Shown: positions 4,654 to 43,817, numbered from the stretch's first letter. The stretch is 64,000 nt of DNA from a virus (IMGVR_UViG_3300027754_000067:1-64000), one strand, 5' to 3'. Translations and numbers: made by a program. Notes: generated from the letters alone by a model not told the origin.

Positions 4654-4826
4654 TACCCCATCAATTTTTAACGGAACGCAGTGGGGAGCGCATACTGCAT
4701 AAATAACGCTTATTTTTCCATATAGCCGAATTACTTCTCAAGACCAACTTTGAGCAAAGAATTGGGGCATTAAGTTTAATATTGACTTAAAGTGGTTCAA
4801 GACCATAATATGGTACAAAGTAAATT

Positions 4827-5144
4827 ATGACCGACGAAGAATTTCAAGCTGCTTTTGCTGATTTTGATGATATATCAAGCCAATATACGCCTGTTGACAT
4901 TTTAGCAAAGTATGCTAATGGTGAAAAGCTTGAAGTAGGCTCTTTGTATCGTGCTTTAGATATTTTGTGCTCAGCTTATGGAAGGGTCATAGCTCAAAAT
5001 GGAGATATTTTCATGTGTCTAGAGCAGCTAAATTCTGAGAGTACATCTGAGTATCAAAATTATAAGTTTCTTTTAGAAAATGGAGATATTTTTACTTTTC
5101 GCTATGATCCAACATATAGTTTTTGTGAGAAAGTAAATCCATGA
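4827..5144 (+). CDS. Hypothetical protein (VGSLY motif)
   Basis: 105-aa ORF containing LEVGSLY. Confidence 0.7.
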   Translation: MTDEEFQAAFADFDDISSQYTPVDILAKYANGEKLEVGSLYRALDILCSAYGRVIAQNGDIFMCLEQLNSESTSEYQNYKFLLENGDIFTFRYDPTYSFCEKVNP

Positions 5145-5392
5145 TTAAATCGGGTAGTCTAGTTCGATGGAAGAACTGGGAGAAATTGAAGAAACATTAT
5201 TTAGTTGGGACTGATTCAAGTAAGAGAATTATTTCAATTAACCAAAGTGATTCTTTAATGTTTTTGGAAGAGATTCGCATTGGTTCCAGTGAGATTAGTG
5301 TTAATGTTGTAAAAGTCTTGACTGGTTCTGGGATCATTGTTACAATTTTGGCTGAAGCTTCTGAGTTTGAGATTTTGGAGGCGGTGAAATAA
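5141..5392 (+). CDS. Hypothetical protein
   Basis: 83-aa ORF with ATGA overlap. Confidence 0.7.
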   Translation: MIKSGSLVRWKNWEKLKKHYLVGTDSSKRIISINQSDSLMFLEEIRIGSSEISVNVVKVLTGSGIIVTILAEASEFEILEAVK

Positions 5393-5395
5393 TTT

Positions 5396-6085
5396 ATGGA
5401 AGCATCTGAGCTAAAAGAGATTCTGGATCAGCACCGGCTTTGGATTGATGGAAAGGGAGGGAGTCGTGCAGACCTCCGTGGTGCAAACCTCCATCGTGCA
5501 AACCTCCGTGGAGCAAACCTCGGAGGTGCAAACCTCGGGCATGCATACCTCTTGCGTGCAGACCTCACTGGTGCAAACCTCTATTGTGCAGACTTGACGA
5601 GTGCATACCTCTCGGGTGCAAACCTCATTGGTGCAAACCTCGGACGTGCAAACCTCGGAGGTGCAAACCTCGGAGGTGCAAACCTCGAACGTGCAAACCT
5701 CGGAGGTGCAAACCTCACGGGTGCAAACCTCAAGGATGCATACCTCACGGGTGCAAACCTCATTAGTGCAAACCTCATTGGTGCAAACCTCAAGGATGCA
5801 AACCTCATTGGTGCAATCCTCTCGGGTGCAAACCTCACGAATGCCATTTTATCTGATGTTTCTTGGATTATTCCCGGTTGTTTGGCTCAGTTGAATAATA
5901 TTGATTATTGTGGCTTTTATCTAGAAAAAGAGAGAAAATACGAAAACTTTATTCAAGACAGCATTGGATTTTTCATTCAAAACAATCCCGAAGAAAAGAC
6001 TTTTGATATGCTCCTTGGAGATCGGATTATTCGAGGTATTCCTGATTGGGTAAAGTATTCGGGAATGAAACAGATTTTGTCATAG
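5396..6085 (+). CDS. Pentapeptide-repeat protein, C-terminal module type A
   Basis: About 25 A(N/D)Lxx repeats; C-terminus SWI.PG...IPDWVKYSGMK shared with 10994. Confidence 0.9.
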   Translation: MEASELKEILDQHRLWIDGKGGSRADLRGANLHRANLRGANLGGANLGHAYLLRADLTGANLYCADLTSAYLSGANLIGANLGRANLGGANLGGANLERANLGGANLTGANLKDAYLTGANLISANLIGANLKDANLIGAILSGANLTNAILSDVSWIIPGCLAQLNNIDYCGFYLEKERKYENFIQDSIGFFIQNNPEEKTFDMLLGDRIIRGIPDWVKYSGMKQILS

Positions 6086-6108
6086 AATTTACTTAGAAAG
6101 ATTAGATT

Positions 6109-6363
6109 ATGGATATCCGAGAAGAGGTTCCGTACAATGCATTTGTTAACATGCCTCCGATGTATTGGCGTAACATTGATGAGGCTAAGGGAGCATTGTA
6201 TTTTCTTGCCGCAATAGATTCAACATTCCCAATAGATGATTTTGCATACAAGCTGCCATTCATTCGTGCTATTGATGCATGTAAAGATTTTGAAGACATT
6301 AAAGAAGTATATTTAAAATATTTCGGTGATAAACACAAGAAAGTAGTTTTGAATTCTCTTTAA
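6109..6363 (+). CDS. Hypothetical protein
   Basis: 84-aa ORF in the co-oriented array. Confidence 0.65.
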   Translation: MDIREEVPYNAFVNMPPMYWRNIDEAKGALYFLAAIDSTFPIDDFAYKLPFIRAIDACKDFEDIKEVYLKYFGDKHKKVVLNSL

Positions 6364-6609
6364 TAATCTTATCAAGAAAGACATAATAGAGTCATGAATC
6401 AGATTTCACTACCAGAAGTAAGCAATGCTTTACTTGATCCATCGATTTTTAATCGATCAACTTTTGTTTTACTGCTTTTGAGTGCAGTGTTTGAATCACT
6501 TATATTAAAGCAATATATCATGTGGATTATGGGTTAATGGAATAGATTGCGGCAAACACATAAAAATTATATCATTGATATCATCAAATAGATAAGGTAA
6601 GTTAACAAC

Positions 6610-6978
6610 ATGGACAAAGATACAAAACTGCTTCTTGGTTGGACGATAACTTGTTTGTTTGCATTAATTCTGATAATCGGATTTACTCCATCGCCCGAAC
6701 GAAGAGTAGATCCTGTTTTAGAAGCCATACAGGAGCGAAACAGGATTTATATTATTGAACGAGGTGCAGAAGATGACGCTTCTGACAAAGCACTATCGGA
6801 GCATCAAGAGGTAAACTATGTAAGATGCTTTCTTCGACCGGCTGGATATGTGACTTGTCAGGTTCATACACCGCCAATGGATGTTGAAGCATATTGCCGA
6901 GCAAGGGGTCCACGGGAGTTTCTTGTTGATGGGAATCGTTGTCGATGGACAAGTCCGTCTTCAATGTCTCATCCATAA
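6610..6978 (+). CDS. Membrane-anchored, Cys-containing exported protein
   Basis: N-terminal hydrophobic segment; leaderless promoter. Confidence 0.7.
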   Translation: MDKDTKLLLGWTITCLFALILIIGFTPSPERRVDPVLEAIQERNRIYIIERGAEDDASDKALSEHQEVNYVRCFLRPAGYVTCQVHTPPMDVEAYCRARGPREFLVDGNRCRWTSPSSMSHP

Positions 6979-41376: not shown

Positions 41377-41474
41377 TAAAATCCTTTGCAAACCTCTGGA
41401 GTGCAGACCTCAATTAAATGCCTTGACTCTTCAATCAGAATCCAGTAAGATCAGAACATAACAAAGGAACCTAG

Positions 41475-41501
41475 ATGCAAAAGATCCGAGACGGTCCCTA
41501 A
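41475..41501 (+). CDS. Micro-ORF MQKIRDGP
   Basis: Own promoter (41423-41451), AAGGA RBS. Confidence 0.6.
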   Translation: MQKIRDGP

Positions 41502-41612
41502 TAAAACTCTGTGCAAACTACACGGGTGCAAACCTCAATCAATGCCTTGACTTCTCATTCAGAATCCAGTAAGATCAGATCACAAAGCAGATAACTAAAA
41601 GGAACCAACTAG

Positions 41613-41642
41613 ATGCAAAAGATCCGAGACGGTCCTATCTAA
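41613..41642 (+). CDS. Micro-ORF MQKIRDGPI
   Basis: Own promoter (41547-41575), AAGGA RBS. Confidence 0.6.
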   Translation: MQKIRDGPI

Positions 41643-41708
41643 ACTTCCTACAATCAATGGTTTGACATACCGGGGAGCGCATGGTATAAACGCTCATTAC
41701 TAAGAAAA

Positions 41709-41797
41709 GCCCGAATGGTGGAATCGGCAGACACCGGAGACTTAAAATCTCTTGCTGCGAAAGTAGCGTACCAGTTCAAGTCTGGTTTCGGGCACCA
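41709..41797 (+). tRNA. tRNA-Leu(UAA), long variable arm, CCA encoded
   Basis: GCCCGAA/TTCGGGC acceptor, anticodon loop CTTAAAA, T-loop TTCAAGT, ACCA end; promoter TTGACA(41662)-N17-TATAAA. Confidence 0.93.
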
Positions 41798-42106
41798 TAA
41801 AAGAGATTTTAAGTCTCTTGACTTAAAACAAACAATCCTGTAAGCTAAGAACATCAAGGGAGCAAAACAATGCAAACCAAGAAGCAAGCCATCAAGGATT
41901 TTCGGGAATTTCTCTTGCCTTCCATCCCAAACAATGATACCATCGCCAAGCAAGAAGCATGGAATAATTATACTGATGCTCTTTGCAAGAGCCGTTTTAT
42001 TACCCTTCGCCAATATGAAAACTGGACTAACCCCTTCTGATTTAATCCCTTGACTATCCAGTGAGAGTCTGATAAAGTCAGGAAAGATCAGGGAGCAAAA
42101 GAAACC

Positions 42107-43374
42107 ATGAAGATCAACCATCGCACTGGATCTGTCAAGCGTTTGGACCATCACGAGAACTATCGCTTTAACAAGTCTGGCTTGAAGGAGGAAGGTAACA
42201 CGGTTCGCCGCTGCATGGATCGTGCCGCAATCAAGAACAGCCTTGAAGGCAACGATGGCACGCTCTTTGCTCGCAGCAAGGAAGGAAACCCTTGGAACTT
42301 CGATTGATTTGCAAGTAGCATACCAAGTTTTGCCGTAAACATACCAATTTTAATCCTTTGACAATCCAACCAACAAAGGGTAAAGTAAGAACATGGAAAC
42401 GACGAACAAGGTTTGGACAGAGGCCGCAATCGTCTCTCTGCTCCAGAGCAACAATCGTGCCGTCGAAAGGGCAATCCTGGCAATCTTTGCTCGGCAAACG
42501 GAGGATGAGAAGTCAACGGAATGCACCCGGCACGAGAACTCTCGTGGATTCTCTGCGGCTGATGCCCGTACCGGCTCCTACATGGCACGCTGGATTAGCA
42601 GCGGAAAGCGTCTCGATGGAAAGTTTCTTGACAAGGCCCGAAAGATGGCCGTCAAGTACCGCAAGCAACTGGTAGAGGTTGCCAACGGCTAGCAAACAGC
42701 ATACCAGTGGGAGGGCGCATACTTTATCACGCCCATTGCCGTCAACAAAACTCTGCGGCAAACAAACAAATTTAATTACTTTACTTCATTCCCTAATCAT
42801 GCTAATGTCAGGACACATCAGACAACGGCAACCAACAAAAGCAAGCACAAGGGAATCAAAACAATCCCTTGACAATCCAACCAACAAAGGGTAAAGTAAG
42901 AACATGGAAACCAAGAGCAACACGGTTCACATCTTTCAGGCGGCTGGTCTCGGCGTCGGTCCCTTCAAGCTTCACCATGTATCCGGTGAGGGAGGAAAGT
43001 GCCAGTACTGTGCCACTCCGATTCTGTGGCGTTTCTATCTCAATGGCATTGACGGCTCTACTTTCTTCGTTGGATCGGATTGTGTCATGAAGACCGGCGA
43101 TGCGGGACTCATGAAGATTGTTGACGCAGAAGTCAAGCGCCGAATGGCAGAAGCCCGAAAGGTCCGTGAGGATGCCAAGCTGGCATCTGTCAAGGAAAGC
43201 ATGAAGGATGCCAACGTGCTTGCCAAGCTGGCAACCCTCCCACACCCGAATGGTTACTATGCCCGCAATGGCAAGACTCTTGCAGACTATGCCTCGTGGA
43301 TCGTGAAGTACGGTGGCAAGACTGCAATGCTCAACCTTGGCAAGAGTATTGCAAAGGCTACCGTCTCGGCCTAG
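42107..43374 (+). CDS. Three hypothetical proteins (42107-42307, 42393-42692, 42904-43374)
   Basis: Own promoters; 42904 has CxxC...VGSDC; the latter two are followed by pseudoknots. Confidence 0.75.
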
Positions 43375-43817
43375 TCAATCTGACAAACGGTGGGAAGGCG
43401 CATACCGGGAATCACGCCTTAGACGGCTCTAATAGCCCCTCCAGTGACCGCAAACCACAAGGGACCATAAAGGGTAGCAGAACAAAACAGAAGCCAACCA
43501 AAAGGCTCCCAAGAGATCGGGCAAACACCATGCCAAACTCTGCGGCAAACATACCAATTTTAATCCTTTGACAATCCAACCAACAAAGGGTAAAGTAAGA
43601 ACATGGAACACAACGAAAACATCGAGTGCTTCGCTTGTGCTGGATTCTCCTATTACATGGGATCGCTTGGCGATCTAGACTGGTACAGATGCCGCAACTG
43701 CGGCTTTGAACAATACCAGCAAACTACTCCCGATTCAGAAGAAGAAGATTCCGAGTAATCAATTGATTCTTTAATCATTAACTGATATATTGGTTCCATC
43801 TAACCAATGGAACCAAT

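Follow-up and report, generated by a model that had tools for sequence, protein, structure and literature searches.

A covarying RNA pseudoknot that recurs after stop codons in a freshwater phage contig and in other viral contigs: a possible roadblock at message 3' ends

INTRODUCTION

Why would a phage carry one small RNA fold in thirteen copies, each a short way after a stop codon? The question is raised by IMGVR_UViG_3300027754_000067, a viral contig of 86.5 kb in the IMG/VR database (CheckV completeness, 24%). We analyzed its first 64 kb, positions 1 to 64000, which we call the window. An earlier note on the window had described a two-helix H-type pseudoknot there (hereafter, the knot) and had not recognized it as a known Rfam family. 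Comparative sequence evidence indicates that this fold is real, that it exists at the RNA level, that it is widespread in viral contigs, and that it is uncatalogued. As for its role, we tentatively propose that the knot acts as a roadblock by which the 3' end of the upstream message is set and shielded.

RESULTS

Thirteen copies of the knot in the window

The knot has the consensus P1-GGG-(N)NNGCG-CAU-P1'-linker-A-CGCNN, where P1 and P1' form the first helix and the GCG and CGC strands form the second, P2. To count its copies, we used a covariance model, R1, for which 58 copies were taken from the window and from other contigs; it treats P1 as structure and P2 as sequence only. With filters off, R1 found 13 matches in the window, all on the plus strand and scoring 18 to 42.9 bits; the next best match scored 9.1 bits. 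The earlier note had also counted thirteen, and the site that it did not list is 35257 to 35288. A strict pairing-aware finder returned 12 copies on the plus strand and 0 on the minus strand, compared with a mean of 0.02 in 200 shuffles. The copy outside this finder, at 13069, has one A·C mismatch in P2. Bases 64001 to 86542 of the record hold no copies.

The copies are as follows. Each line gives the two helices, the R1 score, the upstream stop codon with the gap from it to P1, and what lies downstream; "box" is the first element of the promoter module described below.

4678 to 4711, plus strand: copy 1; P1 GCAGU/ACUGC, P2 GAGCG/CGCUU (one G·U pair); 37.7 bits; stop 4653, gap 24 nt; U5 run at 2 nt, no promoter box
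13069 to 13101, plus strand: copy 2; P1 CGGU/ACCG, P2 GAGCG/CGCCC (one A·C mismatch); 40.6 bits; stop 13056, gap 12 nt; box TGCGGCAAAC at 19 nt
23621 to 23655, plus strand: copy 3; P1 CGGU/ACCG, P2 UUGGCG/CGCCAA (6 bp); 18 bits; stop 23611 (KTSC-domain gene), gap 9 nt; box at 5 nt
25409 to 25442, plus strand: copy 4; P1 UGGU/ACCA, P2 UGGCG/CGCCA; 21.7 bits; stop 25399, gap 9 nt; box at 7 nt
27218 to 27256, plus strand: copy 5; P1 CCAGA/UCUGG, P2 GAGCG/CGCUC, 13-nt linker; 37.1 bits; stop 27204, gap 13 nt; tRNA-Leu(CAA) at 12 nt (27269)
34765 to 34791, plus strand: copy 6; P1 AGU/ACU, P2 GAGCG/CGCUC; 42.9 bits; stop 34758, gap 6 nt; box at 6 nt
35257 to 35288, plus strand: copy 7; P1 GGU/ACC, P2 GAGCG/CGCUC, the sole copy with UAU for CAU; 38.3 bits; stop 35241 (DUF7717 gene), gap 15 nt; box at 6 nt
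35698 to 35726, plus strand: copy 8; P1 AAGU/ACUU, P2 GGGCG/CGCCC, extra A after GGG; 26.6 bits; stop 35684, with a second in-frame stop directly after it, gap 13 nt; box at 6 nt
37998 to 38024, plus strand: copy 9; P1 ACC/GGU, P2 AAGCG/CGCUU; 32.7 bits; gaps of 24 or 37 nt from the stops of two overlapping open reading frames (ORFs) (37973 and 37960); next box 235 nt downstream
40736 to 40762, plus strand: copy 10; sequence identical to copy 6; 41.3 bits; stop 40721, gap 14 nt; box at 6 nt
41667 to 41695, plus strand: copy 11; P1 AUACC/GGUAU, P2 GAGCG/CGCUC; 38.7 bits; TAA 41642, which ends a putative 9-codon micro-ORF of an array, gap 24 nt; tRNA-Leu(UAA) at 13 nt (41709)
42706 to 42734, plus strand: copy 12; P1 AGU/ACU, P2 GGGCG/CGCCC; 26.1 bits; stop 42692, gap 13 nt; box at 19 nt
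43388 to 43420, plus strand: copy 13; P1 CGGU/ACCG, P2 AAGGCG/CGCCUU (6 bp); 20.5 bits; stop 43374, gap 13 nt; next box at 120 nt

All thirteen are co-oriented with the genes, as had been claimed, and the measured length of 27 to 39 nt is the range given before. The stop-to-P1 gaps (6, 9, 9, 12, 13, 13, 13, 13, 14, 15, 24, 24, and 37 nt) agree with the 7 to 38 nt of the earlier note, and the P1 and P2 variants that it listed are all present at their sites. Its near-invariant loop bases also held, with GGG in 13/13 copies and CAU in 12/13 (the exception being the UAU at 35257 to 35288). The linker is 3 to 13 nt long in the window and 2 to 21 nt elsewhere, and it is variable except for its final A.

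Covariation of both helices

The fold was examined in three tests, two of them free of retrieval bias. For P1, we scanned IMG/VR with a pattern that fixed only the core and the 3' strand of P2. At least 3 consecutive pairs, of many sequences, flanked the core in 48 of 66 distinct viral instances, and 15 of the 66 had none. When the same pattern was applied to bacterial and archaeal genome contigs, 6 of 120 instances paired, and this rate of about 5% is that of chance. A chance origin of the copies is rejected by this low rate together with the shuffles described above.

For P2, the fixed part of the pattern was the core with one common P1; the two outer P2 bases were left open, as was all sequence downstream. 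Both outer bases were complementary after a downstream CGC in 105 of 126 distinct instances; the remainder had one pair (5 instances), no pair (4 instances), or no CGC (12 instances). The free dinucleotides were of at least 10 types (including GC/GC, 29; CC/GG, 19; GA/UC, 15; AU/AU, 13; GU/AC, 6; and CU/AG, 6), and at least 9 instances were G·U variants. The base before the CGC was A in 103/105.

The third test was a model-built alignment of 101 matches, 88 of them distinct. Paired cells made up 87.5%, compared with 71.4% after shuffling. The covariation score was 0.391 versus 0.098 for shuffled alignments, a value that 0 of 500 shuffles reached, and slid controls gave at most 0.084; some rows with a 6-nt P2 strand were misregistered by the model, which lowered these figures slightly. 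The three inner P1 pairs vary freely (one of them is UA in 41 rows, AU in 21, GC in 19, and CG in 3), and the GU and UG classes are present among the P1 pairs. The two outer pairs form in about 40 to 55% of rows, so P1 is usually 3 to 4 bp. The description of the element as a covarying two-helix H-type pseudoknot is therefore borne out, both in the window and in independent viral contigs.

Because G·U pairs are tolerated and the strand bias is strict, the structure is one of sense-strand RNA. A DNA-level repeat is unlikely for the same two reasons. Nearest-neighbor energies of the isolated helices range from +2.5 to -5.2 kcal/mol for P1 and from -2.8 to -7.1 kcal/mol for P2, and neither helix by itself is predicted to be a strong hairpin. 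Retention of both helices along with the invariant loop bases suggests a cooperative tertiary fold of the type seen in known roadblock knots.

In nested folds, P1 gains a G·U pair, between the first G of GGG and the U of CAU, and a G-C pair, between the third G and the C of CAU. This extension is seen in several copies, for example, at 4678 to 4698, 27218 to 27238, and 41667 to 41687, and the natural CAU-to-UAU change at 35257 retains the third-G pair as G·U. GGG and CAU may pair together in an alternative or intermediate fold. In a wider sample, no triplet other than GGG and CAU rose above background, but the search patterns had fixed those bases.

Position of the knot in the window

Bases 1 to 45000 hold dense small plus-strand genes, many with a repeated module upstream that the consensus marks as a putative promoter. 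In order, it consists of a near-palindromic box, TGCGGCAAAC, also written (TT)TGCGGCAAA(C); an A/T-rich spacer; TTGAC; 17 nt; and a TAAGGT- or TAAGAT-like hexamer. Modules span 6548 to 43572 on the plus strand (an example is 34798 to 34856). The pattern from box to TTGAC has 16 exact occurrences, on the plus strand only, where 0 are expected by chance, and with mismatches allowed there are about 30 to 45 boxes. The palindromic box looks like a candidate site for a dimeric protein upstream of the -35 element. A search of viral contigs with the promoter pattern found one other contig, with a chance match inside a coding sequence.

A promoter box lies 5 to 19 nt after 8 of the 13 knots, and the spacing is exactly 6 nt in five. 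Two more knots (27218 and 41667) are followed after 12 and 13 nt by tRNA-Leu genes, the pair of tRNAs already noticed earlier, and the remaining three have 114 to 235 nt downstream without a called feature. No start codon occurs within 40 nt downstream of any of the 13 copies. About 30 boxes have no knot and sit 3 to 13 nt after a stop codon, so that the knot resembles an extra segment of about 35 nt that may or may not be placed between the stop codon and the promoter. The genes upstream share no family; by Pfam, they include a KTSC gene and a DUF7717 gene and otherwise have no match.

Eight knots are upstream of the next promoter and are therefore absent from the next gene's own transcript. 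Thus, in the window, any action of the knot must be on the upstream message or on read-through RNA. The knot belongs here to the 3' end of the upstream message.

Might the knot end that message by stopping transcription? In this account, it would be an unconventional terminator or insulator, the knot half of a terminator-promoter composite closing one-gene units, like the promoter-early stem-loops (PeSLs) of T4-type phages. Not only do 8/13 copies abut the promoter module, five of them at the fixed 6-nt spacing, but conventional terminators are also missing. In the 20 kb scanned (26000 to 45999), there were no plus-strand intergenic terminator-like hairpins, all 7 plus-strand sites being inside ORFs. 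Terminator-like sites as a whole were not enriched in that region (23 versus 17.6 ± 4.9 in shuffles), whereas promoter-like sites were (54 versus 31.2 ± 6.7). PeSLs are themselves called composite terminator/promoter sequences flanking variable early genes in PMC4122927. However, the knots lack the G+C-rich hairpin and U-tract of an intrinsic terminator; their helices are weak alone, and the scan of 26000 to 45999 called 0 of the 13 copies. The earlier note had stated that there is no U-tract, and this is mostly so. Among 206 copies in other phages, T never exceeds 35% at any downstream position, and the 20 nt 3' of the knot are A-rich, G-poor, and without a U-tract. Four or five window copies do have a run of 4 to 5 U within 10 nt downstream. 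Of these runs, those at 13069, 34765, and 40736 belong to the promoter module, that at 27218 belongs to the tRNA leader, and that at 4678 directly follows the 3' strand of P2. Moreover, most copies elsewhere are operon internal, a few nucleotides before a ribosome-binding site; a terminator at that position would shut off the next gene. Two window copies are crossed by contigs from RNA libraries that run on into the next unit, and some 30 window promoter boxes have no knot ahead of them. We consider a terminator improbable.

Two side observations concern promoters and tRNAs. Three tandem promoter-like TTGAC-N17-TAAGAT sites (41297, 41423, and 41547) lie ahead of the knot at 41667 and its tRNA-Leu. 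A third tRNA-Leu(UAA), at 51133 to 51214, was called by ARAGORN within an ORF (51095 to 51976); it is possibly a false call or an overlap, and it has no knot ahead.

Occurrence and context in other phages

In 206 distinct contexts from other phages, a co-oriented ORF of at least 80 amino acids ends within 40 nt upstream of the knot in 157, and the edge of an antisense ORF does so in 22. The median stop-to-knot distance is 10 nt in one set (116 contexts; 97/116 within 20 nt) and 12 nt in a second (90 contexts; 62/88 within 20 nt). The gap has a mode of 5 to 13 nt and a floor of 4 nt, with one outlier below, and all three stop codons are used.

Spacing of this kind is known from recoding spacers, where it places a structure at the ribosome entry site. 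The knot could then be a translation boundary device: lying just outside the mRNA entry channel of a terminating ribosome, it would stop sliding and re-initiation or would tune termination or coupling. The sharp lower limit of 4 to 5 nt and the mode are consistent with this, as is the knot's frequent place right against the next Shine-Dalgarno sequence. Coremin elements, the compact RNA structures discussed below, block scanning ribosomes and stimulate frameshifting according to PMC10520033 and PMC10321173. However, nothing translatable lies within 40 nt downstream in the window. The reading frames past the stop have no consistent in-frame or shifted extension (0 to 160 codons, with one double stop). 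The stop codon can be any of the three, and short gaps are expected anyway in compact genomes. A translational role is thus unlikely in our judgment, and clearly so. Recoding by read-through or frameshift is rejected: the extensions have no pattern, one gene has a double stop, and there is no slippery site.

The genes upstream of the knots fall into 55 PHROG families among 150 and include resolvases, methyltransferases, and nucleases. The single-stranded DNA-binding protein accounts for 27/150 (largely one lineage), and the major head protein accounts for 4/150. This diversity bears on whether the knot is a specific recognition element, such as a protein or ligand site, a signal for RNase P or another endonuclease, or a very small self-cleaving ribozyme. 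The unpaired GGG and CAU and the A before the CGC are near-invariant across unrelated contigs, which speaks for such an element, and the knot adjoins RNase P sites. However, a riboswitch would not be expected to follow unrelated genes, and no shared neighboring protein turned up, though no systematic search was made. Invariant loop bases are also expected of a purely structural tertiary fold, and the search patterns biased how GGG and CAU were sampled. We give recognition little credence. With neighboring genes that are unrelated, a riboswitch-type aptamer in particular is unlikely.

Knots also stand 4 to 6 nt before a tRNA or tRNA array in contigs L103, L144/L150, and L362. In L144 (71 to 179) and L150 (2936 to 3044), both from IMG/VR, the knot is 6 nt before the first tRNA of an 11- to 12-gene array. 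A further contig, L148, is the second one with pentapeptide-repeat genes; it has four knots, each followed by a -10-like sequence. Five other whole records have 1 to 4 copies each, and the 13 in the window are the highest number among the six whole records scanned.

One carrier has been cultured. Synechococcus phage S-EIVl (KJ410740; L290) has one knot on the minus strand, at 44067 to 44093, with a 3-bp P1 and the P2 CUGCG/CGCAG. It lies 35 nt before AHV82202, the first gene of a leftward block. Its R1 score is low (12.2 bits) because R1 treats P2 as a fixed sequence, so copies whose P2 differs in sequence are missed in R1-based counts. Among cultured phages, nothing matched two carrier loci at the DNA level, and a 36-nt query gave a chance match only. 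In a search of five bacterial genomes, there was 1 match, in a contig of an Akkermansiaceae metagenome-assembled genome. A run of R1 on 151 genomes of the Halomonas class gave 0 matches and is uninformative, with only 47 of about 300 to 1800 candidates per genome scored.

Comparison with known RNA elements

At gathering thresholds, Rfam 15 had 0 matches in the window, in line with the earlier view that the knot belongs to no known Rfam family. With the threshold relaxed to E values of up to 10 for three copies, the sole match was weak, unrelated, and on the opposite strand, and fourteen further carrier loci gave tRNAs only. Literature searches found no description of the knot. Its novelty thus stands against Rfam 15 and the searchable literature; however, a catalogue of 10,006 candidate viral RNAs (PMC10690425) lists its motifs in supplementary tables, outside the accessible text, and may include it.

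The closest resemblance is to coremin, or xrRNA-C, an exoribonuclease-resistant RNA (xrRNA) of plant, fungal, and picorna-like RNA viruses. PMC10520033 describes a 4-bp hairpin with a loop of 4 to 8 nt, YGAD (4 nt) or YGNNAD (6 nt). A conserved spacer of 8 to 10 nt and a required second hairpin follow, and the second stem has only about 3 bp and no junction bases (PMC10520033 and PMC10321173). In Watson-Crick coremin variants (xrRNA-WCC), the first loop begins with an essential G, and about the next three loop bases (e.g., GCG) form Watson-Crick pairs with a spacer CGC, abutting the 3' strand of stem 1 (PMC10321173). By the same accounts, coremin and its variants are roadblocks to the exonuclease Xrn1 and to ribosomes, without any protein (PMC10520033 and PMC10321173).

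Set beside these descriptions, the phage knot is like coremin and the WCC variants in its very small hairpin knotted with a downstream strand, its G-first loop, its GCG/CGC pairing, and its A-rich linker. It is unlike coremin in its loop, GGG-(N)NNGCG-CAU, which is 11 to 12 nt long and has G rather than a pyrimidine as its first base. It is also unlike coremin in what follows, with a variable linker (3 to 13 nt in the window) instead of the spacer and a promoter, tRNA, or ribosome-binding site directly afterward instead of the hairpin. Compared with xrRNA-WCC, it shares the G-first loop and the GCG/CGC pairing but has three Gs, a second stem of 5 to 6 bp, and a CAU junction before the 3' strand of stem 1. 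Xrn1 is not known from bacteria. On the features compared, the knot would not be classed as a member of the coremin family, but by analogy it may work like coremin.

Among phage elements, PeSLs come nearest. They too are short, repeated, noncoding modules that mark off small variable early genes (PMC4122927). Their structured RNA is directly followed by an early promoter, as 8/13 window knots are followed by the putative promoter module. Unlike the knot, a PeSL is a plain stem-loop; the knot also occurs without a promoter (5/13 in the window) and within operons in other phages.

In bacterial operons, REP elements and intercistronic stem-loops stall 3' exonucleases. The knot is like REP elements in being a repeated structure just after stop codons that would protect the 3' end of an upstream message, but REP elements are long imperfect hairpins of host chromosomes, whereas the knot is 27 to 39 nt long with invariant loops. 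Finally, the knot shares its size class, H-type topology, A-rich third loop, and codon spacing of 5 to 9 nt with luteovirus-type frameshift knots, retroviral read-through knots, and the preQ1-I riboswitch. Unlike them, it has no slippery site or extension frame, has no Rfam match, and lies on the 3' rather than the 5' side of genes.

Source DNA and other features

The phage contig is present in DNA runs of freshwater metagenomes, and megablast of 10 kb of the window against cultured phages gave no match. A DnaE-like DNA polymerase III alpha subunit (61016 to 63823, minus strand) has at most about 26% identity to proteins of Bacillus, Geobacillus, and Streptomyces phages. A mismatch scan showed that 15-bp periodic repeats of the GTGCAAACCTC type, which encode pentapeptide-repeat proteins, make up several genes:

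5396 to 6085: pentapeptide-repeat gene
10994 to 11590: pentapeptide-repeat gene
13945 to 14640: pentapeptide-repeat gene
21251 to 21715: pentapeptide-repeat gene
22665 to 23087: pentapeptide-repeat gene
32152 to 32718: pentapeptide-repeat gene

The presence of such genes here and in the knot-carrying contig L148 hints at a cyanobacterial host.

DISCUSSION

The earlier note had inferred several candidate roles for the knot: 3' exonuclease block, processing or (anti)termination signal, protein-binding aptamer, and small ribozyme. Of these, the context favors a role at the 3' end of messages, as a roadblock or in processing, and makes ribozyme and termination roles less likely. We infer a roadblock, and the enzymes that it would stop, from the fold and its context, and we hold this reading as a possibility short of even odds. 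Each copy would be the final structured element in the transcript of the gene upstream. Its fold would comprise a first stem of 3 to 5 bp, a GGG loop running along a G+C-rich second stem of 5 to 6 bp, CAU at the junction, and an A-rich third loop with the invariant A at its end. In this form, it would be a mechanical roadblock at the cistron boundary. The likeliest targets would be 3'-to-5' exoribonucleases such as PNPase, RNase II, and RNase R. They would enter at a downstream end that arises when read-through transcripts are cleaved by an endonuclease or RNase P. A stall at the knot would leave the upstream coding region with a defined, protected 3' end.

Several observations support this proposal. 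Knots stand 4 to 13 nt upstream of tRNAs, whose 5' ends are cut by RNase P, both in the window and in L103, L144/L150, and L362. If RNase P cleaves there, the upstream RNA would be left with the knot as its 3'-terminal structure. In 20 kb without a plus-strand intergenic terminator-like hairpin, no other 3' structure is on offer. The roadblock fits best because it accounts for the anchoring to stop codons, the place before RNase P sites, and this lack of any other 3' structure. Genes with abundant products, those for the single-stranded DNA-binding protein and the major head protein, are among the upstream genes, which we count in its favor. The ribosome has no need to unwind a structure that lies more than about 5 nt past the A-site codon. 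The gap floor of 4 to 5 nt would therefore be expected if the knot has to remain folded during termination.

Other observations weigh against a 3' roadblock. Parts of the phage were found in 6 RNA libraries, of which four were examined, as low-depth assembled contigs in which transcript ends are not resolvable. Two of these contigs cross the copies at 35698 and 40736 into the next promoter with no end at the knot, though this is compatible with read-through. Several others stop 2 to 25 nt before the copies at 27218, 34765, and 40736, and we draw nothing from these stops; those at 34765 and 40736 are uninformative because both copies and their promoters are near-identical repeats, which break assemblies. 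The knot is found at only 13 of the many gene ends in a promoter-dense region, so it is not needed at every unit end. In L346, a knot follows a tRNA at about 10 nt, a position in which blocking a 3' exonuclease would interfere with trimming of the tRNA. The S-EIVl knot is 613 nt from the nearest upstream co-oriented stop. Finally, the next start codon is within 40 nt in 166/206 copies elsewhere, and the Shine-Dalgarno sequence begins 0 to 3 nt after the knot in 17 of the 52 cases that have one. This proximity suits a function for the downstream cistron equally well.

Such a function could be that of a barrier in the other direction, the phage counterpart of the xrRNAs of eukaryotic viruses. 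The knot would stop RNase J or block the 5'-end-dependent scanning of RNase E and so shield the RNA downstream, keeping decay of the upstream cistron out of the next cistron, tRNA, or read-through message. Besides the nearby start codons and Shine-Dalgarno sequences of other phages, the S-EIVl knot just before the first gene of its block would suit such a barrier. So would the H-type topology, size class, G-first loop, GCG/CGC stem, and A-rich third loop, all found in Xrn1-stalling Watson-Crick coremin variants (PMC10321173). However, the coremin loop consensus and the required downstream hairpin are lacking. After 8/13 window copies, a promoter gives the next gene its own transcripts without the knot. 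Many bacteria have no 5'-to-3' exoribonuclease at all. We therefore regard a 5'-to-3' barrier as unlikely, although with something in its favor.

To return to the 3' roadblock, a more general form of the idea is that the prokaryotic virosphere has in the knot its first class of exoribonuclease-resistant RNA. The knot would be a protein-independent roadblock used in many hosts, would allow read-through transcripts to be cut into separately stable pieces, and would be convergent with coremin-type xrRNAs. This wider claim is more doubtful than the roadblock itself.

What would the finding mean? If the roadblock reading is true, the knot, at about 28 nt, is a portable element with which phages set where messages end and how stable they are, using neither a terminator nor a protein. 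It would then account for how defined messages arise from promoter-dense early regions that have no terminators. The xrRNA concept, drawn from eukaryotic RNA viruses, would then apply to bacteria as well, and synthetic biology would gain a very small insulator or stabilizer. As a cultured cyanophage with one knot, S-EIVl is a possible experimental system. The window itself contributes the highest copy number and the order of knot and then promoter, which ties the knot to the 3' end of the upstream message. Whatever its role, the knot is a widespread, strongly covarying RNA family that is missing from Rfam, and by marking gene ends and their strand it would aid the annotation of phage genomes.

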